Notes: generated by a model not told the origin, from the letters alone. DNA of 64,000 bases from Thermoanaerobaculia bacterium (GCA_044869805.1 JBIOXV010000172.1:14715-78714), one strand, 5' to 3'. Shown: positions 32,903 through 59,299, counted from the stretch's first letter. Made by a program: numbers and translations.

Positions 32903-33655
32903 TCAGTCAGGCCGGAACAGCTCCGCGGGTGCGTGGACCAACCCGGCGGCGCTCGTCCCCGGATGGCTCGCCAGGTATTCCTCGACCAGCCGGAAGCCCA
33001 GCGCGTAGCCGGTCCAGCGCGGCAGGGCCGGGTCGGTGCCGAAGAACCAGGCGCCGAAGTCGAAGGTCGTGGAGTCGAAGAGCGGCCGCGCCTGGGCCAT
33101 GTAGTGCGGGATCGAGGCTTCGGAGAGGGCGCTGGACCACGGCGGGATCGGTGCGCCCAGGAGCTCCACCGCGAAATGGTCCGCCATTCCCTCGGAGATC
33201 ATGGCCTCGAGCAGCGTCACCCCGTAGCCCGGGCCTCGCCAACGCGCTGCATGGTGCAGCTCGTGGGCGGCGAGCGGCGGCAGGCGATCGGGCAGCACCT
33301 GGGCCAGCGCCGGGAAGGCTGGGTCGGCCACGATCTCGATGGTGAAGGCATTGGGCGTGTAACCGCCGAGACCGTAGCCGGGGATGGAGCGCGCCCGGTC
33401 CGGCGACACCAGGAAGGTGACGCCCCCGACCGGGATCGCCCTCGCGGCGGTCTCGAAGGTGGAGATCAGAAGACCCCGGATCGCCGGCTCGACCGCCGCG
33501 AGCTGGCCGTTGGGGTCGACGACGACGATCGAGCTAGAGCCCGGCGGGTCGCCTGGCTCGGAGGGCGAGCGGCGGTCGCAGGCCGCGGCGGCGAGCCAGA
33601 CGCCGGTGATCCAAAGGGCGGCGAGCGAGGCGAAGGCGGGAGCGCGGCGCTGCAT
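32903..33655 (-). CDS. Putative zinc-dependent protease lipoprotein (HExxH; DUF2268-like)
   Basis: Signal peptide with Cys (LAAAACD) and an HELHHAARW motif. The family assignment is tentative. Confidence 0.45.
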   Translation of the reverse strand: MQRRAPAFASLAALWITGVWLAAAACDRRSPSEPGDPPGSSSIVVVDPNGQLAAVEPAIRGLLISTFETAARAIPVGGVTFLVSPDRARSIPGYGLGGYTPNAFTIEIVADPAFPALAQVLPDRLPPLAAHELHHAARWRGPGYGVTLLEAMISEGMADHFAVELLGAPIPPWSSALSEASIPHYMAQARPLFDSTTFDFGAWFFGTDPALPRWTGYALGFRLVEEYLASHPGTSAAGLVHAPAELFRPD

Positions 33656-33782
33656 ACGGGCCCTCCTTCGGAAAAACGGCGGTCGATCTGGTAAGCGACG
33701 CTTGCAAGTCCTCTGCCGCCGGGTGCTAGCCTGCGCTCCTACTCATGCCCCCCTACCCATGCGTCTCGAGAAGGAGCTCCCG

Positions 33783-36232: not shown

Positions 36233-36419
36233 CCTCGCTCCGAGCCGAGTGGGTCCCGTTTGTACCACGGCCGCCTGCCGGCACACGGGCTGTCCCGGCG
36301 ACGGTGGCAGCCGGCACTCTTAGGACAGGTAATCTTCCGCCATTTTCGCCGGGATCGGCGGGCATCGCCGGCTTGCGATCGCCCGGGCGCCCCGACGAGC
36401 TTAAGTCAAGGAGGCCGTG

Positions 36420-38057
36420 ATGAGCTCAGTCCCGAACGGAGCCCGCCTCGCTGTGGCCCTCGCGCTCGTCGGAGCGCTGCCGGCCGTCCCCGCCCTCGCG
36501 GCGTCGCCCGACCATCCCGAGGTCAGCTTCGCCGTGCGGCACGACGTCTCACCGCCGCTCGCCCAGCAGCCGATCCGCCGCCCGCGGGCCGGCCAGCCCG
36601 ATCGGCAGATCCCCCTGCGCGTGCCGCTGGACTTGGCGGCCCGGTATCACCCCACCCCGCCCGCCGCGGACCCGCTGCTCGCGGTGAGCGAGACCTTCGC
36701 GGTCGCCACACCCTCTCCGATCCTCACTTTCGAGGGCCTGTCGGACGACGACAACGCCGCCGTCACCGGCGGCCGGATCGTGCCGCCGGACACCCAGGGC
36801 GACGTGGGCCTCACCCAGTACCTCCAGGCGATCAACCTGATCCTCGCCGTCTACAACAAGGCGACCGGGGCCCGCACCTTCGGCCCGGTGACGGTCGCCT
36901 CGCTGTGGGCCGGCTTCGGGGGCGAATGCGAAACCAACAACGACGGCGATCCCATCGTGCTGTACGACGACGCGGCCGACCGTTGGCTGGTGAGCCAGTT
37001 CGCGATCGCCGCCGACGGCCACCAGTGCATCGCCATCTCCACCACCAACAACCCCGCCGGCTCCTATTTCCGCTACGACTTCGTGGTCAGCCCCGACGCC
37101 TTCAACGACTATCCCAAGCTCGGCGTCTGGCCGGACGGCTACTACATGAGCGCCAACGAGTTCGAGACCAACTTCACCGGCGCCATCGCGGTGGCCTTCG
37201 AGCGCAGCAGGATGCTGCTCGGCCAGCCCGCTCAGATGGTGAAGTTCGGGCCTCTCGCCTGTGGCAGCGAGTGCTTCTTTTCCCTCCAGCCCTCTCACTT
37301 CGAGGGCGGCACGGCGCCGCCGGCCGGCGCGCCCAACACCTTCGTGATGGCCTTCGACGACGAAACCTGGGGAACCGGCTCCAACCCGGACGGCTACCGG
37401 ATCTGGGACTTCACCGTCAACTGGACGAGCCCGGGCAGCTCTAGCTTCATCGTCCGTCCACAGGTCAACGCTCCCGAGTTCGACGCCAACCTGTGCAACT
37501 TCTCGCGGAACTGCATCCGCCAGCCCTCGCCAGGCGAGCGCCTGGACCCGCTGGGTCAGTTCACTATGTTCCGGGCTCAGTACCGAAACTTCGGCACCAG
37601 CGAGCGGATCGTCCTCAACCACACGGTGGACGTGGGCAGCAACCGCGCCGGGGTGCGCTGGACCGAGCTGCGCGACAACGGCAGCGGCTGGGTGCTGCAC
37701 CAGACCGGGACCGTCGCACCCGGCTCCGATTCACGCTGGGTGGGCTCGATCGCCATGGACGGTGACGGCAACATCGCGCTCGGCTACAGCGTCTCGAGCC
37801 AGACCGTCAGGCCCTCGATCCGCTACGCCACGCGCTCGGCGGGAGACCCCTTGGGCACCATGGGCGCGGAGGTGACGCTGCAGGCCGGGGCGGGCGTACA
37901 GCGCCAGTCCTTCAACCGCTGGGGCGACTACTCGACGATGAGCGTCGACCCGGCGGACGACTGCACCTTCTGGTACACGCAGGAGTACTACGCCAACAAC
38001 GGCAGCTTCGACTTCAAGACGCGGATCGGCTCGTTCAAGGTGCCGGGCTGTAGCTGA
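36420..38057 (+). CDS. Secreted hypothetical protein, possibly beta-propeller/Asp-box-like
   Basis: A strong Shine-Dalgarno (AAGGAGG) sits 8 nt upstream and a signal peptide is present. The 545-aa ORF has native codon usage. Asp-box-like segments are visible (SIAMDGDGN; WGDYSTMS). I recognised no confident family. Confidence 0.55.
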   Translation: MSSVPNGARLAVALALVGALPAVPALAASPDHPEVSFAVRHDVSPPLAQQPIRRPRAGQPDRQIPLRVPLDLAARYHPTPPAADPLLAVSETFAVATPSPILTFEGLSDDDNAAVTGGRIVPPDTQGDVGLTQYLQAINLILAVYNKATGARTFGPVTVASLWAGFGGECETNNDGDPIVLYDDAADRWLVSQFAIAADGHQCIAISTTNNPAGSYFRYDFVVSPDAFNDYPKLGVWPDGYYMSANEFETNFTGAIAVAFERSRMLLGQPAQMVKFGPLACGSECFFSLQPSHFEGGTAPPAGAPNTFVMAFDDETWGTGSNPDGYRIWDFTVNWTSPGSSSFIVRPQVNAPEFDANLCNFSRNCIRQPSPGERLDPLGQFTMFRAQYRNFGTSERIVLNHTVDVGSNRAGVRWTELRDNGSGWVLHQTGTVAPGSDSRWVGSIAMDGDGNIALGYSVSSQTVRPSIRYATRSAGDPLGTMGAEVTLQAGAGVQRQSFNRWGDYSTMSVDPADDCTFWYTQEYYANNGSFDFKTRIGSFKVPGCS

Positions 38058-39471
38058 GCCCGGCCGATTCCAGCTTCGCCGCCTCCTCCCGCACCACCTG
38101 GTCCGCGGTCAGGCTGGTGCGGGAACTCTTGATGACCGAGAGCTGGTCCAGTAGCCAGGGCGCCGGATCGGCGCCCGTGGCGCGGGCCGTCCTGGCGACG
38201 GCCGCGGCCGCGGCCTTGAGGCAGTTCCTGGGCTCGATGCGATCGAGCTCGTCCCAGAACCAGCCGCAGGAAGAGAACATGCGGTGCCTGAGGCGCTGCG
38301 CCTCGAGGAGATCGCCCAGGCGCGTGACCTCGATGCGCTTGAGCGCGCGCTTCGCAAAGGCGGCCGCCAGCTTGGGCAAGGTCCGCCGGCCGAGTGCCAA
38401 GTCGATCGCGGCCAGCAACAGGCCGTGCGGGTCGTCCACCAGCTCGCCGGCGGCCTGCTGGTAGGCGCGATCGAGATCGACCGCCAAGGCGTTGAGCGCG
38501 GCGCGCAGCGGCGCCTTCCAGTGCGCCTGCGGGGTGCAGTGGCAGAGGTCGCTCCAGCGCGCCACGCCATGGTGACAGCTCCAGGAGCTGGGCTCGACCA
38601 CCTCCATCGACTGGCGCGGCGGGTGCGCGTCGAGGAAGCGGGCGAGGTTGGTGACCTCGAAGCCAGCACGCGACGCGGAGCTCCTCAGCAGGCGGCGCAG
38701 GAAGAGCTGGCGGTCCTTCTGATGGTGGCCGTAGAGCTCGCCGTCGGTGGCGATGAGCAGCAGCCGGTCCTCGCCCTCGGGCTCGAGCCGGGCGCCCAGG
38801 GGCTTGAGCTGCTCGCGGGCGAAGCGGTCGGCGTTGGTGGTGGCGCTGGGGTCGAAGGAGATGCGGCCCGAGAGGCTGCGCACGAAGAAGAAGGCGGCGA
38901 GGCGCCGGCCCTGGGGAAGCTCCACCCAGTAGGGCCGCGTGGGGTCGAGGGTCTGGGTCTTCGCCTGCCAGGGGGCGAGGACCGTGAATTCGATCCCTTG
39001 CTCGGCCGCCACCGCCAGCGTCTCGCGGTCGGCCGCCGTCTCCGGCAGCCACAGGCCGCGGGGCTTCCGACCGAAGCGCCGCTCGAAGTCGGCAACTCCC
39101 CAGGCGATCTCGAGCTCCTTCTCGGCCCGGGTGGCGAGCGGCAGGATGGTGTGGTGGTAGCTCTGGGCGAGCGCTCCGCCGGTGCCCGAGCGGCCGGCTC
39201 CAGATCGCCGGGCGCTCGCCTTGTCGGCGGCGACGATCTTCTTGTGCACGGCGGGGGCCGCGCGCGCCATCCAGGCGAGCAGAGTGGGGCCGAAGTCGAA
39301 GGACAGCAGCTCGTAGTTGCCGGCCTCGGCGTTCGGCCGGTAGCACTCGGCGGTGATCTTCTCGTTGAAGTTGGGATAGGGATCGGCGCCGGGCTCTTCC
39401 GGGATCTCGCCGCTCGCCGGGTCGTCGCGCGGAGGTTGGTAGAAGTGGCCGTGGACGGCGAGGAAGGTCAC
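38035..39471 (-). CDS. Glycoside hydrolase family 57-like protein with a DUF3536 C-terminal region
   Basis: The N-terminus (V)TFLAVHGHFYQPPRDDPASGEI...NFNEKITAECYRPNAEA is characteristic of GH57/DUF3536 proteins. A GTG start at 39469-39471 is inferred. The remaining 673 aa of the 1151-aa track ORF upstream are spurious. Confidence 0.8.
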   Translation of the reverse strand: MTFLAVHGHFYQPPRDDPASGEIPEEPGADPYPNFNEKITAECYRPNAEAGNYELLSFDFGPTLLAWMARAAPAVHKKIVAADKASARRSGAGRSGTGGALAQSYHHTILPLATRAEKELEIAWGVADFERRFGRKPRGLWLPETAADRETLAVAAEQGIEFTVLAPWQAKTQTLDPTRPYWVELPQGRRLAAFFFVRSLSGRISFDPSATTNADRFAREQLKPLGARLEPEGEDRLLLIATDGELYGHHQKDRQLFLRRLLRSSASRAGFEVTNLARFLDAHPPRQSMEVVEPSSWSCHHGVARWSDLCHCTPQAHWKAPLRAALNALAVDLDRAYQQAAGELVDDPHGLLLAAIDLALGRRTLPKLAAAFAKRALKRIEVTRLGDLLEAQRLRHRMFSSCGWFWDELDRIEPRNCLKAAAAAVARTARATGADPAPWLLDQLSVIKSSRTSLTADQVVREEAAKLESAGLSYSPAP

Positions 39472-40688
39472 GCCGCCCGTACCTTGACTCGCTCCCCCAC
39501 CAGCTCGAGCAGGCGCTTGAGCTCGTCGTAATCCGGGTAGCGCAGCCGCACCCAGGCGTTGGCCATGTAGCCCGCCTCCACCGGCTGGGTACGCGAGCCC
39601 ACCGGTGGAAAGTGATAGTCGATGATCCACTCCGCGAGCTCGTGCTCCATCTCCTCGACGCCCTCGTAGGCGACGATCCGCCCGTCGCGGTCCGGCCGCA
39701 GGTTGACGATGCCGGCCGAGAAGCGCCGGCTGGGCACCTGGGTGGTGTGGCCGTGGACGATCGCCGCCGCCCACTCGCGGTAGACGTCCATCTCGTTGGC
39801 GGCGCAGTAGAGGTCCCAGGCGCCCACCCCCGGCGGCCGGCAGCCGATCTCCGAGAACTTGAGGCCCTTGTTGCCGAAGAACCACTCCATGTGGGTGGCC
39901 GAGGTGCCGATCGAGAGCGCCGCGATCACCTGCGTCCCCAGCCGCTTGACCTCGTCGTACCCTGAAGAGTCGATGCGGTTGGTGGCGATGAACATCGGCG
40001 AGACGTGGCGCTCGCGCATCGCGGTCAGCACCCGCGGGTAGTAGTGGGTGATGAACTCGTGGCCTACCTCGCCGCCGGCGGTGATGGTGTCGTAGAAGCC
40101 CTCGTGCCCGTCGATGAACTCCTCGACGGCGACCGAGGCGCCGCGCTCGAAGCCCTGCTCGGCAATCGCCGCCTCGAGCTCGCGCGCGTCGTCGGCGCGC
40201 GTGGTGCCGGCGGCGCCGGCGCCGCTCCTCGGCTTCAAGATCACGGGGAAGCCGACGCGCGCCGCGAAGTCGCGCACCTCCGCGGCCGAGGAAGCCGCCG
40301 CCGACTGCGCGCAGGGGATGCCCTGCTCGCGCAGGAACTCCTTCATCGCCGGCTTGTCGCGGCAGAGGTAGGTGGTCTGGACCGAGGTGCCGGGGATGCC
40401 GCAGGCCTCGCGCACATGCGCCGCGGTCATCACGTGCGCCTCGATGGTGGCTTCGAGGCGATCCACCCAGCCGCGCCGCTGCACGTTGCGCACCGCCTCG
40501 AGCAGGGACTCCTCGTGTACCACCGAGGAGACCTCCTCGTAGTCGTGCAGCATTCGCCTGAGATCGGACGGCAGGGCCGAGGCCGGCACCTCGCCGATCG
40601 CCGTCACCTTGGCCCCCACCTCGGCCAGGCCGCGCACGAACTTGCGCTGGTTGAAGGGGAAGGCGGGCTCCACGAAGACCACGTGCAT
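39468..40688 (-). CDS. ATP-grasp domain ligase (paralog 1 of 3)
   Basis: MHVVFVEPAFPF is the N-terminus. A central ATP-grasp fold (VILKPRSGAGAAG, HMEWFF, EIGCRPPG) is present. Its stop overlaps the GH57 GTG start (GTGA). Confidence 0.75.
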   Translation of the reverse strand: MHVVFVEPAFPFNQRKFVRGLAEVGAKVTAIGEVPASALPSDLRRMLHDYEEVSSVVHEESLLEAVRNVQRRGWVDRLEATIEAHVMTAAHVREACGIPGTSVQTTYLCRDKPAMKEFLREQGIPCAQSAAASSAAEVRDFAARVGFPVILKPRSGAGAAGTTRADDARELEAAIAEQGFERGASVAVEEFIDGHEGFYDTITAGGEVGHEFITHYYPRVLTAMRERHVSPMFIATNRIDSSGYDEVKRLGTQVIAALSIGTSATHMEWFFGNKGLKFSEIGCRPPGVGAWDLYCAANEMDVYREWAAAIVHGHTTQVPSRRFSAGIVNLRPDRDGRIVAYEGVEEMEHELAEWIIDYHFPPVGSRTQPVEAGYMANAWVRLRYPDYDELKRLLELVGERVKVRAA

Positions 40689-40731
40689 GCGGGTTCTCCA
40701 AAGCCGGGAACGCGGGGATAATACACCGCCT

Positions 40732-41682
40732 ATGGCGAGGGCTATCGTTCTTCTGGGGCCGCAGCGGCTGCAGCCGACGCTGGTATCGGTGTGCGACGAG
40801 ATGGGCCTTCGGGGTCCCATCGCGGCGGTCACCGCCGGCTGGCAGGAGCGCGAGGCCGAGGTCGAGGAGATGCGGGCGCATCTCAATCGCCCGGTGGTCA
40901 ACCTGATGCTCCACGAGCGGGGCGAGAAGCTCTTCGCCGCCGATCCCAGGCTGGCCGAGAAGTACCGCGAGCGGCAGGACCGCCTGCGCGACCTGCAAGC
41001 GCTCTACCGCCTGCGCCTGGCCCACGCCCTGGCCGCGGCGCGCGAGGTGATGAGCCGCGCCGCCGCTTCGCTTCCCGGGGGCTCGGAGCTGTTCGAGCCC
41101 GAGGTCGAGGCGGCGATCGACGCCGTGCGCGACCTGGACGCGCACCACCTGGCGCGCGTGCGCGAGGTGCACGCGCGCTTCGAGGCCGAGGCGAGGCCCC
41201 TCGAGCGGCCCGCCCTGCTGCGCCACCGGCACGAGCTCGGCCGCCTGCTCGCCGGCTCCACGGCGCTCGCCATCGCCGGCGGCCACGTCGCCGTGCTGCT
41301 CAACCGGCTGCGCCTCTTCGGGGTGCTGGAGCTCGCCGGCGCGCGGCCGATCATCGCCTGGTCGGCCGGCGCCATGGTGCTCGGCGACCGCGTCGTCCTG
41401 TTCCACGACAACCCGCCGCAGGGCGCCGGCAACGCCGAGCTGCTGGAGGCCGGGCTGGGGCTGTTCGCCGACCTGCTGCCCCTGCCGCACGCCGGCAAGC
41501 GCCTAGAGCTCGACGACACCCTGCGCGTCTCGCTCTTCGCCCGTCGCTTCGCCCCCGCCGCCTGCGTGGCCTTGGATCCCCTGGCCCGCGTCTCGCGCCG
41601 CGAGGCCGGCGGCTGGCGGCCGGGCCCCGGCACCCAGGTACTGACCGCCAAGGGAGCCCTGCGGAAGGCCGCTTCGCTATGA
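40732..41682 (+). CDS. Peptidase S51-like protein (peptidase E/cyanophycinase family; class I glutamine-amidotransferase-like fold)
   Basis: RPIIAWSAGAMVLGDRVVLFHD resembles the GxSAG nucleophile region of S51 peptidases, and the protein is about 316 aa. The family call comes from motif recognition only. Confidence 0.5.
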   Translation: MARAIVLLGPQRLQPTLVSVCDEMGLRGPIAAVTAGWQEREAEVEEMRAHLNRPVVNLMLHERGEKLFAADPRLAEKYRERQDRLRDLQALYRLRLAHALAAAREVMSRAAASLPGGSELFEPEVEAAIDAVRDLDAHHLARVREVHARFEAEARPLERPALLRHRHELGRLLAGSTALAIAGGHVAVLLNRLRLFGVLELAGARPIIAWSAGAMVLGDRVVLFHDNPPQGAGNAELLEAGLGLFADLLPLPHAGKRLELDDTLRVSLFARRFAPAACVALDPLARVSRREAGGWRPGPGTQVLTAKGALRKAASL

Positions 41683-42815
41683 GCCTGGCGATCCACGAGC
41701 TGCAGCGCAAGAAGCGCATCACCACCAAGGCGGTCGACGACTTCCTGGCCAAGAACGCCTTCCCGCTGGTCGAGGGGCCGAGCGTGACCTTCGTCTATCG
41801 CGGCAAGGCGGACGCCGTGCTGCTCCAGCACTTCATCTACGGGCTGCCCACCTCGCGGCCCTTCAAGCGCATCGACGGCGCCGACCTCTGGTACCTGGTG
41901 ATGGAGCTCCCCGCCAACTCGCGGGTGGAGTACAAGCTGAACGTGGTGAACGGCAAGGATCACCACTGGATCCGCGATCCTTTAAACCCGGTCACCGCCC
42001 GCGACCCGTTCGGCGCCAACTCGGTGGTTCACTCCGCGGGGCACGTGCAGCCGGATTGGACGCTCTTCGACCCGGAGGCCCGCCCCGGCACGATCGAGGA
42101 GCGCGAGATCAAGAGCGAGGCCTTCAAGCGTACCCACGGCTACCGGCTCTACCTGCCGGCACGCTTCAGGACTACCCGGCGCTACCCGCTCCTCGTCCTC
42201 CACGACGGCGACGACTACCTGCGCTTCGCCTCCCTCCAGACGGTGCTCGACAACCTGATCCACCGCATGGAGGTGGCGCCGATCATCGTCGCGCTGATCT
42301 CTTCGCGCGAGCGCCTGACCGAGTACGCGGACGACCCGCGCCACGCGCGCTTCGTGGCCGAGGAGCTGCTGCCCCAGCTCGACCGTACCCTGCCCCTGGA
42401 GCCCTCCCCGGCGGCCCGCGGCCTCGCCGGAGCGAGCTTCGGCGCCGTGGCGTCGCTGGCCACCGCCTGGCGCTACTCCGGGCGCTTCGGCAGGCTGCTC
42501 CTGCAGTCGGGCTCCTTCGCCTTCACCGACATCGGCCACCACAAGCGGGGCCCGGCCTTCGACCCGGTGGTCAAGTTCGTCAACGCCTTCCGCGATCAGC
42601 CGGGGCGGCCGACGGAGAAGGTCTTCGTCTCCTGCGGCACCTACGAGTCGCTGATCTACGAGAACCGCTCGCTCGTCCCGCTGCTGCAGGCCACCGGCAT
42701 GGAGGTCCGCTACGTGGAGGCGCGCGACGGCCACAACTGGGAGAACTGGCGCGACCGCCTGCGCGAGGGCCTCTCGTGGCTGTTCCCCGGGCCACTGTGG
42801 ATGGTGTATGAGTAG
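41679..42815 (+). CDS. Esterase-family alpha/beta hydrolase (PF00756-like) with an N-terminal Ig-like/CBM48-like domain
   Basis: The N-terminal beta domain (VTFVYRGKADAVLLQHF...WYLVMELPANSRVEYKLNV) resembles the enterochelin-esterase N-domain and CBM48. The catalytic region LAGASFGA is present. Its ATG overlaps the preceding stop (ATGA). Confidence 0.7.
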   Translation: MSLAIHELQRKKRITTKAVDDFLAKNAFPLVEGPSVTFVYRGKADAVLLQHFIYGLPTSRPFKRIDGADLWYLVMELPANSRVEYKLNVVNGKDHHWIRDPLNPVTARDPFGANSVVHSAGHVQPDWTLFDPEARPGTIEEREIKSEAFKRTHGYRLYLPARFRTTRRYPLLVLHDGDDYLRFASLQTVLDNLIHRMEVAPIIVALISSRERLTEYADDPRHARFVAEELLPQLDRTLPLEPSPAARGLAGASFGAVASLATAWRYSGRFGRLLLQSGSFAFTDIGHHKRGPAFDPVVKFVNAFRDQPGRPTEKVFVSCGTYESLIYENRSLVPLLQATGMEVRYVEARDGHNWENWRDRLREGLSWLFPGPLWMVYE

Positions 42816-42840
42816 ACCACCTACCGACGAAAGGTAAACC

Positions 42841-44112
42841 ATGGCCACCGTCACCAAGAAGATCGGGCTCTCCCTGGGCGCAGACCTCTGCTGGCCCCTG
42901 TGCTACGAGGAGATCGTCAAGCAGCTCGAGCTGGCGGTGCCGATCGACGGGCACACGGTCGGCGTCGAAGTCGAACGGGTCACTATCGAGCCCTTCAACC
43001 TGCGCCAGCCGGTGAAGTACGACTTGGTGCTCGATCGGCTCACCCACTGGTACCACACCAGCCGCGAGTGGATCAAAAAAGCGGTGCTGATGAACGACCT
43101 CTACGTGCTCAACAACCCGTGGGCCATCCAGTCTATGGAGAAGCACACCACCTACTGCGCCATGATGCGCCTCGGCTTCCCGATCCCCGAGACCTGGATG
43201 CTGCCGCCCAAGGAGTACGAGCCCTCCGACGACCTGCAGGTCACGCTCGAGCGCTACGCGCGGCTCTTCAGCCTGTCCTCGATCGGCGACGAGGTCGGAT
43301 ACCCGATGTTCATGAAGCCGTTCGACGGCGGCGCCTGGAAGGGGGTGCAGCGCATCGAGGACGCCGCCGCCCTGCGCGCGGCCTACGAAGGCAGCGGCAA
43401 GAACATCATGCACCTGCAGAAGGCGGTGGAGGGCTTCGACCTCTTCGTGCGCGGCATCGGCATCGGGCCGCAGGTGCGCTGCGTGCGTTACAACCCGTCG
43501 GCGCCGCTCCATGCGCGCTACGAGGTGGCCTTCAACTTCCTGACCGGCGAGGAGGCCTCCTACCTGCGCGACCAGACGCTGACCATCAACACCTTCTTCG
43601 GCTGGGACTTCAACTCCTGCGAGTCGCTGCGCCAGGGCGGGGTCTTCTACCCTATCGACTTCGCCAACGCCTGCCCCGACTCGCAGGTGACCTCGCTGCA
43701 CTTCCATTTCCCTTGGCTGGTCAAGGCGCAGGTGCGCTGGAGCCTGTTCTGCGCCCTGACCGATCGCAAGATGCGCAAGAACCTGGACTGGGAGCCGTAC
43801 TACCTGATCGCCGACCGCGACGACCTCTCCTTCCGAGAGAAGCTCGCCGCCTACGCCCAGATCGCCGACCAGCGCCTGGACACCGAGCGCTTCCAGGACT
43901 TCTGCAACCGCAATTTGGCGCACCTCGACGAGGTGTCGTGGGAGTTCTTCGGCACCGGCACCGCCAAGGAGGCAGTGCGCAGCAAGGTGGCCGCCCTCTT
44001 CCCGGAGCACGAGATCGAAGAGTTCACCGAGCACTTCTGGGGCCTGATCCAGTTCTGGCGCAAGACCGAGTCCGACCGCATCGGCACGGGGCGAGGGGAG
44101 GAGACGGCGTAG
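42841..44112 (+). CDS. Distinct ATP-grasp-like ligase (RimK/GshB-like fold), family unassigned
   Basis: GYPMFMKPFDGGAWKGV is a K-P ATP-binding loop, and a C-terminal YPIDFANACP segment is Mg-site-like. The composition is unusually rich in aromatic residues and Lys and poor in Ala and Arg for this genome. Confidence 0.55.
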   Translation: MATVTKKIGLSLGADLCWPLCYEEIVKQLELAVPIDGHTVGVEVERVTIEPFNLRQPVKYDLVLDRLTHWYHTSREWIKKAVLMNDLYVLNNPWAIQSMEKHTTYCAMMRLGFPIPETWMLPPKEYEPSDDLQVTLERYARLFSLSSIGDEVGYPMFMKPFDGGAWKGVQRIEDAAALRAAYEGSGKNIMHLQKAVEGFDLFVRGIGIGPQVRCVRYNPSAPLHARYEVAFNFLTGEEASYLRDQTLTINTFFGWDFNSCESLRQGGVFYPIDFANACPDSQVTSLHFHFPWLVKAQVRWSLFCALTDRKMRKNLDWEPYYLIADRDDLSFREKLAAYAQIADQRLDTERFQDFCNRNLAHLDEVSWEFFGTGTAKEAVRSKVAALFPEHEIEEFTEHFWGLIQFWRKTESDRIGTGRGEETA

Positions 44113-44167
44113 GTCGACCTTTCCAAGCTCGCCCGCCTTCGCACTCTGCGACTGGAGACACTTGCCT

Positions 44168-47167
44168 ATGGCCTCTCGCCGCCTGATCTGCCTCGCCTTC
44201 GCTTTCATGGCCGCCGCGGCTCGCGGTGACGACGACCTCGACGCGCGCCTCGCCGAGATCGCCGCCTGCCAGCTCGACACCGCCAAGGCGGTCACCGTCC
44301 GCGGCCTCGCGCTCAACACCGGCATGGCCACCCTCAAGGTGGACACCGGCACCTTCTTCCCCGCCAGCCCGGTGGCCGGCCGGGTGACGGAAGCGGTCTT
44401 CCTGGGCAAGGCGCGGCTGGTGCTCGATCCCCCCGACGAGATCGAGCGCGCGCAGCTCGAGATCTTCACCGGCCGGACGCGCCTCGAGGTGGAGATCTCC
44501 GAGGCCGCTTTCGTGCTCGCCAGTGACCGGGCCGCGGAAGCGGTGTTCAAGCGCTCGCCGGCCGCGGTCGAGCCGGCCCTCGCCAGCCGGGCGACGGAGC
44601 TCTTCGCCACCTGGAAGGCGAGCCCGGAGCGCAAGCAGCTCGACGTCGACGGCGCCATCCTCGCCGACAGCCTCGGCGACGCCTTCGCCCAGGGCTACTT
44701 CGCCGGCTGGTTCCAGAGCGCGGAGCTGGGCAAGTTCCTCTACCTGGTCGAGCCGAGCTCCGTCGAGCAGGTGACGCTCGGGCAGTTCGTGCCCATCGAC
44801 CTCACCAAGAAAGAGAAACGCAAGGCGGCCAAGCTGATCCACCGCGAGCAGCGGCGGGGGCGGCTGATCGGCATCGAGGTCGAGGACCTGGGGCAGTGGG
44901 ATACCTGGGTCTCGGCCTCGCTCCGCGGCGCCGCGGCCGGGCCCACGCCCGGCGATCCCGGCTTCGAGCCCGAGCGCTACGTGGTCGATCTCTCGCTCGC
45001 CGACCGCGACCTCGCGGTCAGCGGCCGGGCGCAGATCCAGCTCCGGGCCACGCTCGGCATCACCCGCATCGTGCACCTCGCCGTCCACTCCGAGCTCGAA
45101 GTGACGAAGGTGCTGGGCGAAGGCGGGGAGGCGCTGCCCTTCCGCCAGACCGGCGGCGAGGTGATGGTCGTGCTGCCGCGGGCGCCGGCGGCGGGAGAGA
45201 CCGCCGTCGTCGAGGCCCACTTCGACGGGGAGCTGCTGGAGAAGGTCGAGGGCGGCGTCTTCCTCCTCGCCGAGACCGTGAACTGGCACCCCCACGCCGG
45301 CGACGTCGACCGTGCCACCTACGACGTGACCTTCCACTGGCCGGGGCGCCTCGAGCTGCTGGCCGGCGGCAAGCGGGTGGGCGGCGGCGCGGAGAAGAGC
45401 GGCCGGCAATGGGAGCGGCGGTCGATCGAGCTGCCGGCCGCGGGGCTCGGCTTCGAGGTCGGCAAGTTCCATCTCACGACCCGCCAGGCCGGGCACGTGG
45501 CGATCCGGCTGGGGATGATGCCTTTCGCCGGCGAGGGCCGCAAAGGAATCGAGGAACGCATCCTCGATGCCGCCAGCCGGTCCCTCACCTACTTCGAGGA
45601 GGCCTTCGGTCCCTACCCGCTCGACGAGCTGATCCTAGTGCTGACCCCGCGCCTCTACTCGCAGGCCCTGCTCGGTTTCGTCACCCTGTCGGCGGTGATG
45701 ATGGCCGAAGACAGCCTCTTGGTCTGGCTGATCGGCCTCGAGGACCCGCGCACGGTGATCGCCCACGAGGTCGCGCACCAGTGGTGGGGCCACCAGGTGG
45801 GCTGGCTGGGCTACCGCGACCAGTGGCTGTCCGAGGCGATGGCCAACTACGCGGCGGTGCTCTTCGCGCGGAACGAGCTCGGCGGCGAGCTGCGCTACGC
45901 CCGCGGCCCCACCTCCGACTGGCAGGCGGCGCTGCTCGAGGAGACCGCGGACGGCCGGCCCATCGAGTCGCTGGGGCCGCTGGTGCTCGGGGCGCGGCTC
46001 TCCTCGAGCCGCGGCGGCGACGCCTATAGCTCGATCGTCTACCGCAAGGGGGCGGTAGTGCTCGACATGCTCGCCCGCCGCTTCGGCGAGCAGGCCTTCC
46101 TCGGCATGCTCAAGAAGACCGCCGAGGTCGCCGCCCACCGCGCCATCTCGACCGAGATCTTCCTCGACGCGCTGGAGCGGCAGTCCGGGGTCGAGCTCGA
46201 CGGCTTCGCCGGCCAGTTCATCTACGGCACCGGCCTGCCGGAGGTGTACTACGACTACACCTTCGCCCAGGCGGAGGGCGGCAAGTGGAAGGTGACCGGC
46301 ACCGCCCGCCAGAGCGCCCCTTACCGCTTCCGGTACCGCGTGGTGGAGAGCGCCGGCGGCTTCGACGTGGGGCGCGAGCGGATCGACCTGGCGCGGGTCG
46401 CCGACTCGGCGCTGATCGTGCCGGTGCAGATCGCGCTGTACGACCCGACGAAGCAGGAGGAGAAGAAGGCGAAGCGCAGCGAGGCGCGCGCGATCGGCAA
46501 CAGTCTGCTCTCGGGCCACATCCTGCTCCGGGGCGAGTCGACGCCCCTCTCCTTCGAGCTCGACCACGAGCCCAAGGAGGTCTGGCTCGACCGCCGGGAG
46601 GAGGTGTTCGGCCGCTTCTTCAACCAGCGTCGGCATCCGAAGCGCATGCTCCTGTACCAGGCGATCGACCTCGCGGCCGCCGGCCGCCGCGAGGAGGCGC
46701 TGGCGCTCGCCGCCCAGGCCCTCGCCGCCGAGACCTTCTCCGGCCCCCGTTACGAGGACTCTCCCGGGCCCGAGGACCTCGAGGCCGAGGCGCAGTCGCT
46801 CGACGGCCAGGTGCACCTCCTGCTCGGCCGCCTCCACCTCGACGCCGGCCGCGACGCCGAGGCGCGCTCGGCGCTGGGCGCGGCGAGAGACCTCCTCGAG
46901 CCCGGCAAGCACCCGTGGCGGAAGGGGGAGATCGACCTGCTGGACGCCCGCCTGGCGCTGCACGAGAAGGACTTCGAGCGCGCCTACCGCCTGCTGCGCA
47001 AGGGGGTGGTCAAGCAGGGCACCATCGAGGGCGCCGAGGGCTCGCTGCTGCTGGCGATCGCGGCCCGCGCCACCGGCCACACCGAGGAAGCGAAGCAGGC
47101 GATCGAGGACGCCAAGCAAGGAGGCGCCGAGGTGGGGGCGCTCACCGCGGCGGCCAAGCCCCGCTGA
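44168..47167 (+). CDS. Secreted M1-family zinc metallopeptidase (aminopeptidase-N-like) with a C-terminal TPR region
   Basis: A signal peptide is followed by the M1 signatures IAHEVAHQWWGHQVGW and downstream LSEAMANY. The C-terminal roughly 250 aa carry TPR-like repeats. Confidence 0.8.
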   Translation: MASRRLICLAFAFMAAAARGDDDLDARLAEIAACQLDTAKAVTVRGLALNTGMATLKVDTGTFFPASPVAGRVTEAVFLGKARLVLDPPDEIERAQLEIFTGRTRLEVEISEAAFVLASDRAAEAVFKRSPAAVEPALASRATELFATWKASPERKQLDVDGAILADSLGDAFAQGYFAGWFQSAELGKFLYLVEPSSVEQVTLGQFVPIDLTKKEKRKAAKLIHREQRRGRLIGIEVEDLGQWDTWVSASLRGAAAGPTPGDPGFEPERYVVDLSLADRDLAVSGRAQIQLRATLGITRIVHLAVHSELEVTKVLGEGGEALPFRQTGGEVMVVLPRAPAAGETAVVEAHFDGELLEKVEGGVFLLAETVNWHPHAGDVDRATYDVTFHWPGRLELLAGGKRVGGGAEKSGRQWERRSIELPAAGLGFEVGKFHLTTRQAGHVAIRLGMMPFAGEGRKGIEERILDAASRSLTYFEEAFGPYPLDELILVLTPRLYSQALLGFVTLSAVMMAEDSLLVWLIGLEDPRTVIAHEVAHQWWGHQVGWLGYRDQWLSEAMANYAAVLFARNELGGELRYARGPTSDWQAALLEETADGRPIESLGPLVLGARLSSSRGGDAYSSIVYRKGAVVLDMLARRFGEQAFLGMLKKTAEVAAHRAISTEIFLDALERQSGVELDGFAGQFIYGTGLPEVYYDYTFAQAEGGKWKVTGTARQSAPYRFRYRVVESAGGFDVGRERIDLARVADSALIVPVQIALYDPTKQEEKKAKRSEARAIGNSLLSGHILLRGESTPLSFELDHEPKEVWLDRREEVFGRFFNQRRHPKRMLLYQAIDLAAAGRREEALALAAQALAAETFSGPRYEDSPGPEDLEAEAQSLDGQVHLLLGRLHLDAGRDAEARSALGAARDLLEPGKHPWRKGEIDLLDARLALHEKDFERAYRLLRKGVVKQGTIEGAEGSLLLAIAARATGHTEEAKQAIEDAKQGGAEVGALTAAAKPR

Positions 47168-47177
47168 CCGCCGGCCG

Positions 47178-47489
47178 TTACTCGGTCATCCGGCTGCGCC
47201 GGGCCCGATTCTCCAGCATCTCCAGGAACCACGCCTCGGGGGTCGCCACGTCGCGCCAGCGGTAGATCAGCATCGCCACCACGTCGGCGAGGATCACGGC
47301 GGCGGTGTCGGGGTGCACGCCGTAGCGCTGAAACATCTCGATGATGCGCGGCTCGAGGCGCGCGACCAGGGCCTGGATCTCCTTCCACTGACCCGGCTCG
47401 CCGTCCTCTCCGCCGCCGTCATCACCGTCCGACATGGCTTCATTATCTACGCGGTCAAGACCGGCCCCCAGGATACGCGGCCGGCGCAC
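47178..47489 (-). CDS. Small hypothetical protein with an acidic N-terminus, downstream of glgA
   Basis: A 103-aa ORF (or 85 aa from MSDGDDGG). It lies 39 bp downstream of glgA on the same strand. No family was recognised. Confidence 0.3.
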   Translation of the reverse strand: MRRPRILGAGLDRVDNEAMSDGDDGGGEDGEPGQWKEIQALVARLEPRIIEMFQRYGVHPDTAAVILADVVAMLIYRWRDVATPEAWFLEMLENRARRSRMTE

Positions 47490-47528
47490 GCCGGGATTAC
47501 CGCCCGGCGTAACGCGCCCGGGGCGAGA

Positions 47529-49043: not shown

Positions 49044-50308
49044 TAGACCTCCGTGCCGTCCGGCACCACCGCCCCGGCCGCCACCACGATGATGCCGTCG
49101 CGGATGCACCAGTTGTCGCCGTCGGCGTGGGTCACGCCGCCCGCGTTGACCAGCTTGACGCCGTTGCCGATGCGCACGTCGCGGTCGAGGATGGCGTGCT
49201 TGATCACGCAGTCGCGGCCGATACCGAGCGGGATGTTGCTGCCCGCCGCCTCGTCGGGCTCGAAGAAGTTGGCGCCCATCACCACGCTGTCCTCGACCAC
49301 CGAGCCGGAGCGGATCACCGAGCGCACCCCGAAGATCGAGCGCTGGATCTCGGCGCCGGTGATGATCGAGCCGTCGCACAGCACCGAGTGGTAGACCCGG
49401 CACTCGTTCACCTTCACCCCGGGCAGGAAGCGCGGGTGGGTGAAGATCGGGTAGTCGGGGCTGTAGAGGTTGAGCGGCGGCACCGGCACCGCGAGCTCCA
49501 GGTTCGAGCTGTGGAAGTTGCCGATGGTGCCGATGTCGCGCCAGTAGCCGTCGTAGCCGAAGGCGTAGATCTTCCGCTCGTGGATCGCCTTGGGGATGAT
49601 CTCTTTGCCGAAGTCGTGGTCGTCGGTGCCCACCAGCAGGTCGCGCAGCAGGCCGGGGCGGAAGACGTAGATGCCCATGCTGGCGAGGAGCGCGTCCTCC
49701 TCGGTTTCGAAGCCGAGCTTCTTCAGCGTGGCGGCGTCGGTAATCAGGCGGTCGAGGACCTCCTTCTCGGTCGGCTTCTCCACGAACTCGATGATGCGGC
49801 CGGCGGAGTTGACGCGCATGATCCCCAGGCCTTTGGCCTGTGACCGGGGCACCGCCTTGACCGCCACCGTCATGTCCGCCTTCTTCTGCCGATGGGTGTC
49901 GACGAAGTTCCTCATCTCCATCAGGTAGAGCTGGTCGCCGGACAGCACCAGCACCTCGGAAGGCTGCAGCAGGAGCAGCCGGTCCAGGTTCTGGCGCACG
50001 GCGTCGGCCGTGCCCTGGTACCAGTCGCGGCGCTCGAGGCCCTGCTCGGCGGCCAGGATGTTGACGAAGCCGCGCGAGAAGACGTCGAAGCGATAGGTCT
50101 GCGCGATGTGCTGGTGCAGGCTCGCCGAGTTGAACTGGGTCAAGACGAAGATGCGGGTGATGCCGGCGTGCAGGGAGTTCGAGATCGGCACGTCGATCAG
50201 CCGAAACTTGCCCCCCACCGGCACCGCCGGCTTGGCCCGGCTCTTGGTGAGCGGCCACAGGCGCGCTCCCTGCCCACCCCCCAGGATCGCGGTGACGACG
50301 TTCCTCAT
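49043..50308 (-). CDS. glgC: Glucose-1-phosphate adenylyltransferase
   Basis: ILGGGQGARLWPLT, KPAVPVGGKFRLIDVPISN and the left-handed beta-helix C-terminus match GlgC. The TAG stop overlaps the glgA start by 1 nt. Confidence 0.9.
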   Translation of the reverse strand: MRNVVTAILGGGQGARLWPLTKSRAKPAVPVGGKFRLIDVPISNSLHAGITRIFVLTQFNSASLHQHIAQTYRFDVFSRGFVNILAAEQGLERRDWYQGTADAVRQNLDRLLLLQPSEVLVLSGDQLYLMEMRNFVDTHRQKKADMTVAVKAVPRSQAKGLGIMRVNSAGRIIEFVEKPTEKEVLDRLITDAATLKKLGFETEEDALLASMGIYVFRPGLLRDLLVGTDDHDFGKEIIPKAIHERKIYAFGYDGYWRDIGTIGNFHSSNLELAVPVPPLNLYSPDYPIFTHPRFLPGVKVNECRVYHSVLCDGSIITGAEIQRSIFGVRSVIRSGSVVEDSVVMGANFFEPDEAAGSNIPLGIGRDCVIKHAILDRDVRIGNGVKLVNAGGVTHADGDNWCIRDGIIVVAAGAVVPDGTEV

Positions 50309-50397
50309 CGGCGCCCCTCTCTTGAAGCCAAGCCTCTGAGGTGGCAGATCTTACTCGCACTCGCCCGCCCGGCCCAAGGCCGCTATACTCCCCGCCC

Positions 50398-51618
50398 GTG
50401 CCGCACGTCGTCTTCGTAGCGCCGTTCCTGATGCCGGCCACGGCGCGCTTCGCGCAGGCCACGGCGAGCCTGCCGGGGGTCAAGGTCGGGCTCATCACCC
50501 AGGACCCGGCGGCCAAGATCCCGCCTTCGCTCGCCGCCTCGATCGCCGCCCACCGGCGGGTGGAGAACGCTTTCGACCCGGTGCGCTTGGCCGATGCGGC
50601 CCGCGACCTCGCGCGCTCGATCGGCGGCCTCGACCGGCTGATGGGGGCCCTGGAGCAGCTCCAGGTGCCGCTCGCCCAGGCGCGCGAGATCCTGGGGGTC
50701 GAGGGCATGCGGGTAGAGGCGGCGAAGAACTTCCGCGACAAGGCGCGCATGAAGACCGTGCTGCGGGAGGCCGGCCTGCCCTGCGCCCGCCACCGGCTGG
50801 CGGCTTCCGCCGAGGAGGCGCGCGACTTCGCGCGCGAGGTCGGCCTGCCGCTGGTGGTCAAGCCCCCGGACGGCGCGGGCGCCAAGGCCACCTTCAGGGT
50901 GGGCACGCCCGAGGCGCTGGAGGAGGCCTTGAAGGTCAACGCGCCGGCGCCCGGCCGCCCGGTGCTGCTCGAGGAGTTCGTCACCGGCGACGAGTACTCT
51001 TTCGAGACCGTTTCGATCGCCGGCCGGCCGGTGTGGTACTCCTCCACCCGCTACCTGCCGACGCCGCTCGAGGCGATGCACAACCCATGGATTCAGTGGT
51101 GCGTGCTGCTGCCTCGGGAGCGCGAGGACCCGCGCTTCGACGACGTCAAGGAAGTGGCTTTCAAGGGGCTCGCGGCGCTGGGCATGGGCACCGGCCTCTC
51201 GCACATGGAGTGGTTTCGGCGCCGCGACGGCTCGCTCGCCATCTCCGAGGTCGCCGCCCGCCCTCCGGGCGCGCAGATCACCACCCTGGTTTCGGTGGCG
51301 CACGAGTTCGACTTCCTCGCCGCCTGGGCACGCCTCATGGTGTTCAGCGAGTTCCATCCGCCGCCGCGCAAGTGGGCCTCCGGCGCCGCCTTCTTCCGCG
51401 GCATGGGCGGGAGCCGCGTCAAGGCCGTGCACGGCCTCGACCAGGCGCAGAAGGAGCTGGGGCCGCTGGTGGTCGAGGCCAAGCTGCCCAAGCCCGGCGC
51501 CCCCAAGTCCGACAGCTACGAGGGCGACGGCTACGCCGTGCTGCGCCACGAGAGCACCGAGACGGTACGGAAGGCGCTGATGCGGCTGGTGGCGCTGGTG
51601 CGCGTCGAATACAACTGA
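50398..51618 (+). CDS. ATP-grasp domain ligase (paralog 2 of 3)
   Basis: (V)PHVVFVAPFLMP, LVVKPPDGAGAKA, HMEWF and EVAARPPG are present. A GTG start at 50398 is chosen by alignment to its paralogs; an alternative ATG lies at 50341. Confidence 0.7.
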   Translation: MPHVVFVAPFLMPATARFAQATASLPGVKVGLITQDPAAKIPPSLAASIAAHRRVENAFDPVRLADAARDLARSIGGLDRLMGALEQLQVPLAQAREILGVEGMRVEAAKNFRDKARMKTVLREAGLPCARHRLAASAEEARDFAREVGLPLVVKPPDGAGAKATFRVGTPEALEEALKVNAPAPGRPVLLEEFVTGDEYSFETVSIAGRPVWYSSTRYLPTPLEAMHNPWIQWCVLLPREREDPRFDDVKEVAFKGLAALGMGTGLSHMEWFRRRDGSLAISEVAARPPGAQITTLVSVAHEFDFLAAWARLMVFSEFHPPPRKWASGAAFFRGMGGSRVKAVHGLDQAQKELGPLVVEAKLPKPGAPKSDSYEGDGYAVLRHESTETVRKALMRLVALVRVEYN

Positions 51619-51628
51619 GATCCCGTCG

Positions 51629-52846
51629 ATGAACGTGGTGATGATCGCTCCGGCCTACCCGTGGGAGATGACCCTCTTCACCCGCGGGCTGGCGCGGGTG
51701 GGCGCCAAGGTGCTCGGCGTGGGGGACACGCCGGCCGCGGGGCTGTCGCCGATGGTGAAGGAGAGCCTCGCCGCCTACCTGCACGTGCCCTCGCTGTGGG
51801 ACGAGGAGGCAGTGATCGAGGCCGTGCGCCGGCACCCGGCGGCGCGCTCGCTCGACCTCGTGGAATGCCTGTGGGAGCCGGGCATGATCCTCGCCGCCCG
51901 GCTGCGCGAGCGGCTGGGCCTGCCCGGCATGACGGTCGCCGAAACCGTTCCCTTCCGCGACAAGGGGCGAATGAAACAGGTGCTCGACGCCGCCGGCATC
52001 CGCACTCCGCGTCACTTCCGCGCCGCGTCGACCCGCGAGGTGCGCGCCGCGGCCGAACGCATCGGCTTCCCGCTGATCGTCAAGCCGATCGCCGGCGCCG
52101 GCTCCAAGGACACCCATCGGGTCGACGACGACGCGGAGCTCGAGCAGGTCATCGCCAAGGTCCGGCACGTCGAGGAGGTGAGCGTCGAGGAGTACATCGA
52201 GGGCGAGGAGCACACTTTCGACACCATCTGTGCCGACGGCGAGATCCGCTATTTCAACCTCGCCTGGTACCGGCCGCGGCCGCTGCTGCAGCGCACCGTC
52301 GAGTGGATCAGCCCGATGACCGTCACCCTGCGGGACGTGTTCCGCGACGACCTCGCACCGGGCCGAGAGATGGGCCAGGCGGTGCTCGAGGCCCTGGGAT
52401 TCAAGACCGGCTTCACCCACATGGAGTGGTTCCTGAAGCCTGACGGCGAGGCGGTGTTCGGCGAGATCGGCGCCCGCCCGCCCGGCGCGCGCTCGACCGA
52501 GCTGATGAACTACGGCTGCGACATCGACGTCTTCACCGGCTGGGCCGAGGCGGTGTGCCACCGGCGATTCAGCCAGAAGGTGGTGCGCCGCTACAACAGC
52601 GCCGTGATCTTCAAGCGCGCCCAGGGCCAGGGCCGCATCCAGCGCATCGAGGGCCTGGAGCGCCTGCTCGGCCGCTTCGGCGAGGCGATCGTCTCCGTCG
52701 ATCTCCTGCCGATCGGCTCGCCGCGCCGCAACTGGCTCCAGACCCTGCTCTCCGACGGCCACGTCATCCTCCGCCACCCGCACCTACCGACCTGCATCGA
52801 GATGGCGGACACGGTGGCCGAGGAGCTGCAGCTCTACGCTGCCTAG
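51629..52846 (+). CDS. ATP-grasp domain ligase (paralog 3 of 3)
   Basis: MNVVMIAPAYPW, LIVKPIAGAGSKD, HMEWF and EIGARPPG are present. It follows paralog 2 after a 10-bp gap. Confidence 0.75.
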   Translation: MNVVMIAPAYPWEMTLFTRGLARVGAKVLGVGDTPAAGLSPMVKESLAAYLHVPSLWDEEAVIEAVRRHPAARSLDLVECLWEPGMILAARLRERLGLPGMTVAETVPFRDKGRMKQVLDAAGIRTPRHFRAASTREVRAAAERIGFPLIVKPIAGAGSKDTHRVDDDAELEQVIAKVRHVEEVSVEEYIEGEEHTFDTICADGEIRYFNLAWYRPRPLLQRTVEWISPMTVTLRDVFRDDLAPGREMGQAVLEALGFKTGFTHMEWFLKPDGEAVFGEIGARPPGARSTELMNYGCDIDVFTGWAEAVCHRRFSQKVVRRYNSAVIFKRAQGQGRIQRIEGLERLLGRFGEAIVSVDLLPIGSPRRNWLQTLLSDGHVILRHPHLPTCIEMADTVAEELQLYAA

Positions 52847-58613: not shown

Positions 58614-58617
58614 GGCC

Positions 58618-59217: not shown

Positions 59218-59299
59218 GCGCCGCCAGTCTATTGCTCTGCCGTGACCGGTCTCTGCAAGTGACCCCAACGCTCCCGCGCCCTGGCGCGTCTTAGAGAGC

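Follow-up and report, generated by a model that had tools for sequence, protein, structure and literature searches.

The window analysed here is a 64-kb stretch of DNA from a Thermoanaerobaculia bacterium (GCA_044869805.1, JBIOXV010000172.1:14715-78714), in which the glycogen genes glgA and glgC lie among genes for ATP-grasp ligases, a hydrolase with an S51 fold and an esterase. Positions are counted from the first letter of the window. Comparison with related loci indicates that these genes are part of a conserved ligase/hydrolase module, which is very probably tied functionally to glycogen synthesis. The core of the module consists of the S51-fold hydrolase, a first esterase (EST1), the ATP-grasp enzyme AG-X, a second esterase (EST2) and three further ATP-grasp ligases (AGA, AGB and AGC), and glgA is a frequent insider. 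AG-X is the most conserved member and the hub of the module, and glgC, GlgX and GH57 genes are additions on the glycogen side at the level of individual lineages.

An initial annotation of the window had proposed an uncharacterised ligase/peptidase module linked to glgA and glgC, and this proposal is borne out by synteny among loci of several phyla. Full-text literature searches and a review from 2024 on the alpha-glucan enzymes of prokaryotes yielded no description of the module, although an earlier in-silico mention in the 2009 amidoligase survey (Iyer et al.) stays possible. The broader interpretation given at that time holds in part: the module and its link to glycogen stand, whereas an M1 peptidase and a GH57 hydrolase that had been counted in do not belong to it, and the core member EST2 is missing from the window.

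Conservation of the module and its linkage to glgA

An alignment scan with AG-X, covering one genome per GTDB species, returned at least 460 relatives, of which 80 loci (63-82% identity) were kept for the analysis of gene neighbourhoods. The loci belong to Acidobacteriota, Myxococcota (including the cultured Nannocystis punicea), Planctomycetota, Eisenbacteria, Binatia and a few other taxa. Already the first three neighbourhoods of AG-X homologs held the same gene set. We compared the window proteins with all loci by tblastn and counted neighbours in the 43 fully flanked loci, in which the sequence extends 8 kb or more to either side of AG-X. The S51 gene was present in 32 of these loci, EST1 in 35 and EST2 in 33. 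At least one of the L-amino-acid-ligase (LAL)-type genes AGA, AGB and AGC was found in 32 loci, and all three in 20 loci. On the glycogen side, 23 loci carried glgA within 10 kb, 11 carried glgC (mainly Acidobacteriota), and four carried GlgX, while M1 was seen in two loci and GH57 in one. A glgC gene also accompanies the module in a planctomycetotal locus, L092.

Chance would place a single-copy gene within +/-10 kb of any one locus with a probability of about 0.4% for a 5-Mb genome, well below 1%. In 22 loci, glgA was even located less than 100 bp from a gene of the module. At least four gene orders were observed (arrowheads give the direction of transcription). The first, EST2> <glgA <glgC AGB>, occurs in Acidobacteriota, as in the window. 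In the second, glgA>AGA>S51>EST1>AGX>EST2, all genes are co-directional with gaps of 3-51 bp; it was found in Myxococcota, Binatia, Eisenbacteria and a metagenome-assembled genome of the Steroidobacteraceae. The third and fourth are <glgA AGA> and <AGA <glgA AGB>, the latter in Planctomycetota. In all orders seen, glgA or glgC directly adjoins a LAL gene or EST2. One of the first three neighbourhoods, on the complete Holophagales chromosome CP064972, has GlgX, then AGA on the minus strand, the block S51, EST1, AG-X and EST2, and then glgA and glgC. The synteny is therefore strong both among the homologs themselves and with glgA, and since the arrangement is conserved across phyla, it is not a product of chance.

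The arrangement in the window departs from that of a classical glg operon, as the initial annotation had noticed. Both glgC and glgA score above their curated cut-offs, as expected, and the glgA product matches the GlgA proteins of E. coli and A. tumefaciens and plant SS4 in the PDB over its full length. In contrast to the classical operon, however, glgCA is flanked by ATP-grasp genes instead of contiguous glgB, glgX or glgP; only a short GH57 gene lies nearby, and malQ is 8 kb further on. In seven other loci, six of them from Acidobacteriota, a GlgX isoamylase gene is located upstream of S51-EST1-AG-X, and in six it adjoins AGA.

Two genes of the window had been included in the proposed module but turned out to be confined to a narrow lineage. 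The short GH57 gene was found in the window and in its closest relative, locus L005, only. Similarly, L005 was the only locus with a true ortholog of the M1 metallopeptidase (54% identity). Both genes were rejected as members, as, apart from the window, only the closest relative has them, and M1 is probably not part of the module. The description of this protein as a secreted M1 enzyme with a TPR tail is correct for the M1 domain and for the signal-peptide-like N-terminus; the TPR matches are sub-threshold.

In 19 Myxococcota loci (e.g. L074, 12151-14151; also L040, L041, L075, L078 and L082), a protein of ~660 amino acids (aa) is encoded directly after EST2. It has a weak match to GCS2, a carboxylate-amine ligase resembling glutamate-cysteine ligase, and two CBS domains. 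In this phylum it may supply the module with a fifth ligase that carries a sensor of adenine nucleotides.

No transporter or exporter, regulator, non-ribosomal peptide synthetase (NRPS), IucA/IucC or TonB receptor recurs across 84 loci. Clustering of open reading frames (ORFs) of 25-130 aa in and around the clusters of 83 loci yielded antisense artefacts only, without a conserved small ORF. A model with a precursor of a ribosomally synthesised and post-translationally modified peptide such as a graspetide, or with a small LysW-like carrier, is unsupported because of this lack of a conserved small ORF.

Enzymes of the module

AGA, AGB and AGC can be classified from their sequences as LAL-type ATP-grasp enzymes, with a predicted dipeptide-forming activity. 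They match characterised LALs over their full length and carry the corresponding Pfam domain (PF02222/PF13535, 36-46 bits versus a gathering score of 27). The closest solved relatives in PDB sequence searches with the AGC/LAL type are BL00235 (3vot, 1.7e-20), RizA (4wd3, 3.5e-13) and a further LAL (2.2e-11). Across the orthologs of AGA, conservation reaches 95% or more at 114 of the 406 positions, among them K152, E189/E190, H266-E268 and E280-x-G-x-R-P-P-G. The same level of conservation applies in AGA, AGB and AGC to K152/K155/K152, respectively, H-x-E-W and E-[IV]-[GA]-x-R-P-P-G, which align with the motif in 3vot and 4wd3. All three have E-x-[GA]-x-R, as in active LALs, where it replaces the usual E-x-N. 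In NCBIfam, all three stay below the curated cut-offs for characterised ligases such as BacD, Ddl, PurK and RimK. Their top scores of 68-85 bits fall on the N-terminal part of PRK02186 (cut-off 625), and BacD gives 27-32 bits versus a cut-off of 850.

The three enzymes had been described as closely paralogous. Their full-length pairwise identities are only 32-36% (AGB versus AGC 34%, AGB versus AGA 32%), however, which makes them old paralogs. Orthologs of AGA (57-77% identity) were found in 39 loci, orthologs of AGB (44-68% identity) in 35 loci and orthologs of AGC in 28 loci. Each paralog is thus more similar to its own orthologs (44-77%) than to the other two, which implies that the triplication is ancient and that every copy has been maintained separately. 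In size, three-domain ATP-grasp architecture, sequence and catalytic motif, they resemble stand-alone LALs such as BL00235, RizA and BacD/YwfE. The LALs known so far are encoded by lone genes in orphan or secondary-metabolite contexts, whereas here three paralogs that meet no equivalog cut-off form separate orthologous lines across phyla and flank glgA.

AG-X, the fourth ATP-grasp enzyme, is of a different family, in line with the initial annotation: it matches no Pfam family, and its AlphaFold2 (AF2) model (pTM 0.84) shows an ATP-grasp fold followed by a C-terminal helical domain of ~130 residues. More than 7000 homologs exist, the best 120 of which are all at least 68% identical. In a library clustered at 50% identity, AG-X forms essentially one cluster with a few outliers at 31-45% identity. 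Foldseek returned Ddl, ArgX and RimK as structural matches, and the fold is closest to RimK, ArgX, synapsin and ITPK1. Hence, by its predicted fold AG-X belongs to the RimK/LysX-ArgX structural class. It remains below the sequence cut-offs of this class, with 25.1 bits for TIGR00768 rimK_fam (cut-off 143.4) and 18.5 bits for TIGR02144 LysX (cut-off 275.6). Accordingly, none of the four ATP-grasp enzymes reaches the curated cut-off of a characterised family. Three long AG-X hits (P0126, P0177 and P0254) were considered as gene fusions and rejected, since their ORFs are frameshifted or garbled.

RimK and ArgX/LysX ligate amino acids onto a C-terminal glutamate of a protein. The module has the make-and-break logic in common with such tail modification. 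Compared with the pairs RimK-S6 and LysX/ArgX-LysW, AG-X has the additional C-terminal helical domain, a small LysW-like carrier gene is lacking, and the putative target is an enzyme of 378 aa, EST1.

More distant relatives of AG-X (33-45% identity) have partners that vary in kind but mostly resemble those of the module. In L086 (8540-11230), a 464-aa S51 protein immediately upstream is the sole such partner. L088 (8749-16419) combines the relative with HEAT-repeat proteins and a 417-aa PF00756 esterase 4 kb away. The relative in L089 (6738-11275; 33% identical) lies 2 kb downstream of a GT5 glycogen-synthase-like gene on the same strand, and the one in L090 (4118-7837) lies beside a carboxypeptidase of the MATCAP family (PF08014). 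One other distant relative had none of the S51, PF00756, GT5 or MATCAP partners nearby.

The assignment of an S51-type hydrolase withstood closer analysis. The window protein itself scores just under the gathering score of PF03575 (Table 1), but all 32 of the 32 sampled orthologs, out of more than 5600 homologs, match this family at E<=0.01 (best 1e-7). A profile search of the family against PDB sequences found nothing; the fold is shown instead by structure prediction and Foldseek. With the AF2 model (pLDDT 90.8), ranks 1-16 in the PDB are all S51 enzymes, namely the actinobacterial peptidase 6nqc, dipeptidase E, cyanophycinase and PepE, with E-values down to 6e-7. The protein contains a helical hairpin insertion of ~115 residues (~60-174). 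At the nucleophile position S211 (W-S-A-G-A), 48 of 56 orthologs have Ser, four have Cys and three have Ala, and H225 is kept in 54 of the 56. In some lineages the nucleophile may therefore be Cys, as in class I glutamine amidotransferases, or the copy may be inactive. Known S51 members act on Asp-X and beta-Asp-Arg.

EST1 is a PF00756 esterase with an Ig-like N-terminal domain. Its best match in the PDB is the enterochelin esterase Fes (2b20, 2.7e-15); CE1 feruloyl esterases come next, some of them with a CBM48. With Fes and the CBM48-CE1 feruloyl esterases it shares the domain order of an Ig-like N-domain before a PF00756 alpha/beta hydrolase. It differs from Fes in its score on the enterochelin esterase model NF007758 (108.9 bits, below the equivalog cut-off of 222), in the lack of a siderophore context, in a conserved -YE extension, in its cytoplasmic location and in sharing an operon with ligases. 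The motifs G251-A-S253-x-G255 and G351-H352 are at least 95% conserved, and both EST1 and EST2 keep G-x-S-x-G and the His. Members of PF00756 act on seryl esters, sugar esters and thioesters, and the family includes mycolyltransferases that act on sugar esters.

The N-domain of EST1, an E-set domain, had been likened to CBM48. It mainly resembles Enterochelin_N, with 27.7 bits for the isolated domain and matches in 45 of 46 orthologs. Weak matches to CBM_20 (PF00686) occur in 24 and to CBM_48 (PF02922) in ten of the 46 orthologs, all with E>=0.005 and thus sub-threshold. Of the earlier description as a CBM48-like esterase, the esterase domain and the Ig-like N-domain can be retained, and as an argument for glucan modification the CBM48-like domain is weak.

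At its C-terminus (42750-42815 of the window) EST1 has a nearly invariant tail, ...WLFPGPLWMVYE (W-L-F-P-G-P-L-W-M-V-Y-E), which is directly followed by the stop codon. The last ~20 residues hardly vary across phyla, and the tail reaches past the Fes-like core. Among 66 EST1 orthologs (L001-L084), 60 end in -Tyr-Glu and 61 in Glu; the exceptions are two Planctomycetota with -TYM, one -VYD and three divergent copies. Because AG-X directly follows EST1 and has RimK, ArgX and LysX as structural neighbours, the tail is a candidate ligation or docking site, which may serve the adjacent AG-X.

EST2 is a second, small PF00756 esterase of ~245 aa. Its translation is coupled to that of AG-X in most genomes, usually through an overlap with the AG-X stop codon (e.g. 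L001, 11251-11973; L002, 11266-12009). A tblastn search for EST2 found no copy across the entire window. Its slot (44113-47528) is taken by the M1 metallopeptidase, as in L005.

Gene map of the window and flanking genes

Because of the high G+C content of the window (~70%), spurious frames crowd raw ORF lists, and the coding frame was therefore chosen per segment by third-position GC (GC3). Families were assigned with Pfam (gathering scores) and NCBIfam (curated cut-offs). All genes named in the initial annotation proved to be intact ORFs in the high-GC3 frame, at or within a few bases of the positions given there, and Pfam and NCBIfam confirmed all families but those of the S51-fold hydrolase and AG-X (Table 1).

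Table 1. Genes of the cluster, and malQ, with their positions in the 64-kb window and the supporting family matches
Gene and product	Position	Strand	Family match
GH57/DUF3536-short, 478 aa	38035-39471	-	GH57 PF03065 73.7 bits; partial DUF3536 PF12055 80.2 bits
AGA, LAL-type ATP-grasp, 406 aa (module member)	39468-40688	-	Pfam ATP-grasp 42.9 bits
S51-fold hydrolase, 316 aa (module core)	40732-41682	+	PF03575 21.1 bits (gathering 23.9)
EST1, Fes-like esterase, 378 aa (module core)	41679-42815	+	PF00756 83.6 bits (gathering 22)
AG-X, ATP-grasp enzyme, 423 aa (module hub)	42841-44112	+	no Pfam match; weak RimK/Ddl NCBIfam matches
M1 metallopeptidase, 999 aa	44168-47167	+	Peptidase_M1 PF01433 75.2 bits
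glgA, GT5 ADP-glucose-type glycogen synthase, 504 aa	47529-49043	-	TIGR02095 515 bits (cut-off 328)
glgC, glucose-1-phosphate adenylyltransferase, 421 aa	49043-50308	-	NF002772 537.3 bits (cut-off 537)
AGB, LAL-type ATP-grasp, 406 aa	50398-51618	+	Pfam ATP-grasp 46.1 bits
AGC, LAL-type ATP-grasp, 405 aa	51629-52846	+	ATP-grasp_4 36.5 bits; ATPgrasp_N 27.7 bits
malQ, GH77 4-alpha-glucanotransferase (context only)	61309-62901	+	PF02446 551 bits

Junctions within the cluster are tight. The stop codon of AGA and the start codon of GH57 overlap (GTGA), S51 and EST1 overlap by 4 bp, and the stop codon of glgC overlaps the start of glgA by 1 nt. Gaps of 25 bp and 10 bp separate EST1 from AG-X and AGB from AGC, respectively. 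The divergent gap between glgC and AGB measures 89 bp and that between AGA and S51 only 43 bp (40689-40731). With start codons this close together, the promoters of AGA and S51 must overlap neighbouring coding sequence or one another. No riboswitch or other RNA element was detected in the whole window with Rfam at gathering thresholds. Among the proteins of the cluster, M1 alone has a signal-peptide-like N-terminus, and the lack of signal peptides in the others fits the cytoplasmic location of glycogen.

On either side of the cluster, at 36417-38057 (+) and 52843-~54423 (-), a large protein with a signal-peptide-like N-terminus is encoded. Both proteins are without Pfam matches and without homologs in the related loci, and the gene of the second converges on AGC with a 4-bp overlap. 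Upstream of the cluster, a gene at 33384-35219 (+) encodes an IgA-peptidase-like protein with Peptidase_M64 and M64_N domains, without an apparent link to the module. Peptidase_M64 and M1 are thus two metallopeptidases near the cluster that show no such link. Between the cluster and malQ (57819-59878) lie two genes for extracytoplasmic function (ECF)-type sigma factors and one for a zf-HC2 anti-sigma-like protein (57819-58613, -). The two sigma factor genes (58618-59550, -, and 59300-59878, +) are encoded on opposite strands and overlap by ~250 nt.

Possible functions of the module

The four ATP-grasp ligases and the three serine hydrolases (one peptidase-type, two esterase-type) are apparently active and cytoplasmic, judging from their sequences. 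From the chemistry of the three enzyme families, the module can be read as a cycle that builds and removes a short group derived from amino acids. Each ligase would use ATP to turn a carboxylate, of an amino acid or of a peptide C-terminus, into an acyl-phosphate, which would then be passed to an amine or hydroxyl. The S51 enzyme would cleave amide bonds and both esterases would cleave ester bonds. We tentatively place this group in ester linkage on the alpha-glucan that GlgA synthesises or on an acceptor bound to the glucan, as a reversible decoration of glycogen, although we consider this placement somewhat less than an even bet. It is preferred because it alone makes use of two esterases of a sugar-ester type, an E-set N-domain, the persistent glgA and the neighbouring GlgX and GH57 genes. 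ATP-grasp enzymes can form esters, as do the D-Ala-D-Lac ligase VanA and the graspetide ligases.

Several observations weigh against a glucan-linked group. To our knowledge, no ATP-grasp enzyme acylates a polysaccharide. The similarity of the EST1 N-domain to CBM20 and CBM48 is sub-threshold, and the domain is primarily Fes-N-like. About half of the fully flanked loci, including that of Nannocystis punicea (L062), lack glgA within 10 kb, and the trio S51-EST1-AG-X is also found alone. Distant AG-X relatives with only an S51 partner, or with a MATCAP-type carboxypeptidase, point to peptide rather than sugar chemistry. Moreover, four ligases exceed the need of a simple mono-aminoacyl decoration.

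A more elaborate version of the glucan-ester reading holds that several phyla reversibly decorate glycogen with amino acids or short peptides: the ligases would esterify glucose hydroxyls or extend the attached groups, the PF00756 esterases and the S51 enzyme would strip them, and ligation onto the C-terminal Glu of EST1 could provide control. Taken as a whole, this version is speculative and rather doubtful. Its logic resembles the phosphorylation of starch and glycogen, in which glucan water dikinase attaches a group to the storage glucan at the expense of ATP, and a hydrolase that binds the glucan through a beta-sandwich module (SEX4 or laforin, with CBM48 or CBM20) takes it off again. The enzyme families are wholly different, however; the bond here would be an acyl or aminoacyl ester or an amide, and glucan binding by EST1 is putative.

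Alternatively, the ligases might build a free peptide, depsipeptide or cyanophycin-like reserve or solute that is degraded by the S51 enzyme and the esterases, with glgA and glgC nearby through co-regulation of carbon and nitrogen. We regard this as unlikely. The combination of an ATP-grasp ligase with a serine hydrolase of S51 fold that would reverse its reaction, in the make-and-break manner of a cytoplasmic reserve, recalls cyanophycin synthetase and cyanophycinase (CphA/CphB), and the S51 model matches both cyanophycinase and PepE. The LAL-type enzymes resemble dipeptide-forming ligases, the GCS2-like protein with CBS domains follows EST2 in 19 Myxococcota loci, one distant AG-X relative has S51 as its only partner, and the module often occurs without a nearby glgA. 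Yet four single ATP-grasp proteins of ~405-423 aa stand in place of the multidomain CphA with its N-domain, G-domain and M-domain. A Mur-ligase-like domain is missing, and the cyanophycin synthetase models TIGR02068 and NF010623 give only 36-47 bits versus cut-offs of 850-877. Compared with CphA/CphB, the module also adds the helical insertion in S51, the link to glgA and two PF00756 esterases. These esterases are the tightest partners of AG-X and remain unexplained by a free peptide, unless the product contains ester bonds. Nor does it explain why glgA has been kept in the cluster through at least four rearrangements, co-directional and with gaps of 3-51 bp, and no exporter or regulator recurs in the loci.

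The nearly invariant tail of EST1 raises another, still less likely option, in which AG-X ligates amino acids to the C-terminal Glu of EST1, as RimK does on S6 and LysX/ArgX on LysW, and the S51 enzyme trims them, so that the esterase is switched or localised at the glycogen granule. The prevailing -Tyr-Glu end, the position of AG-X immediately after EST1 in almost all loci, the MATCAP-family C-terminal peptidase beside a distant AG-X relative and the extreme conservation of AG-X, which fits a macromolecular substrate, are all consistent with it. Conversely, four loci (L004, L010, L026 and L063) have AG-X and EST2 but no EST1 within 10 kb, two EST1 proteins of Planctomycetota end in -Tyr-Met, and the three LAL-type ligases and glgA are left unaccounted for. 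Modification of the EST1 tail could coexist with either a glucan ester or a free peptide.

It is very unlikely that the genes serve an unrelated small-molecule pathway, for instance for a siderophore-like compound or an osmolyte, or that AG-X is an ITPK1-type kinase, without a mechanistic tie to glycogen. The closest characterised relative of EST1 is indeed an enterochelin esterase, and ITPK1-type kinases are among the top structural matches of AG-X. However, biosynthetic and uptake genes of the kinds searched for across the 84 loci (NRPS, IucA/IucC, TonB receptor, transporter) do not recur, an identity of 63-82% across phyla is atypical of secondary metabolism, a kinase would leave the S51 enzyme and the esterases unexplained, and the linkage to glgA is too persistent. 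A siderophore reading from the similarity to Fes was rejected on the lack of recurrent transporter, receptor or synthetase genes. Finally, a mere juxtaposition of glg and ligase/peptidase genes by chance has a negligible probability, because, even though M1 and GH57 are truly lineage-specific neighbours, the other genes recur together in dozens of genomes across several phyla, with varying gene order and with junctions that overlap or span less than 100 bp.

All enzymes of the module belong to recognisable superfamilies, but no characterised system combines a glycogen synthase with four ATP-grasp ligases, two PF00756 esterases and an S51 hydrolase, and the hub AG-X lacks a Pfam model despite thousands of homologs across phyla. 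If an aminoacyl or peptidyl group is linked to the glucan, this would be a new covalent modification of glycogen, with a new class of acceptor and a new reaction type for ATP-grasp enzymes. A free peptide polymer would be a second cyanophycin-like reserve with a different building logic. Should AG-X modify the tail of EST1, this would represent, in bacteria, an analogue of tubulin- or S6-type ligation at the C-terminus. The high conservation and synteny of the module imply that, in Acidobacteriota, Myxococcota, Planctomycetota and their relatives, it is an important and unrecognised part of central storage metabolism.

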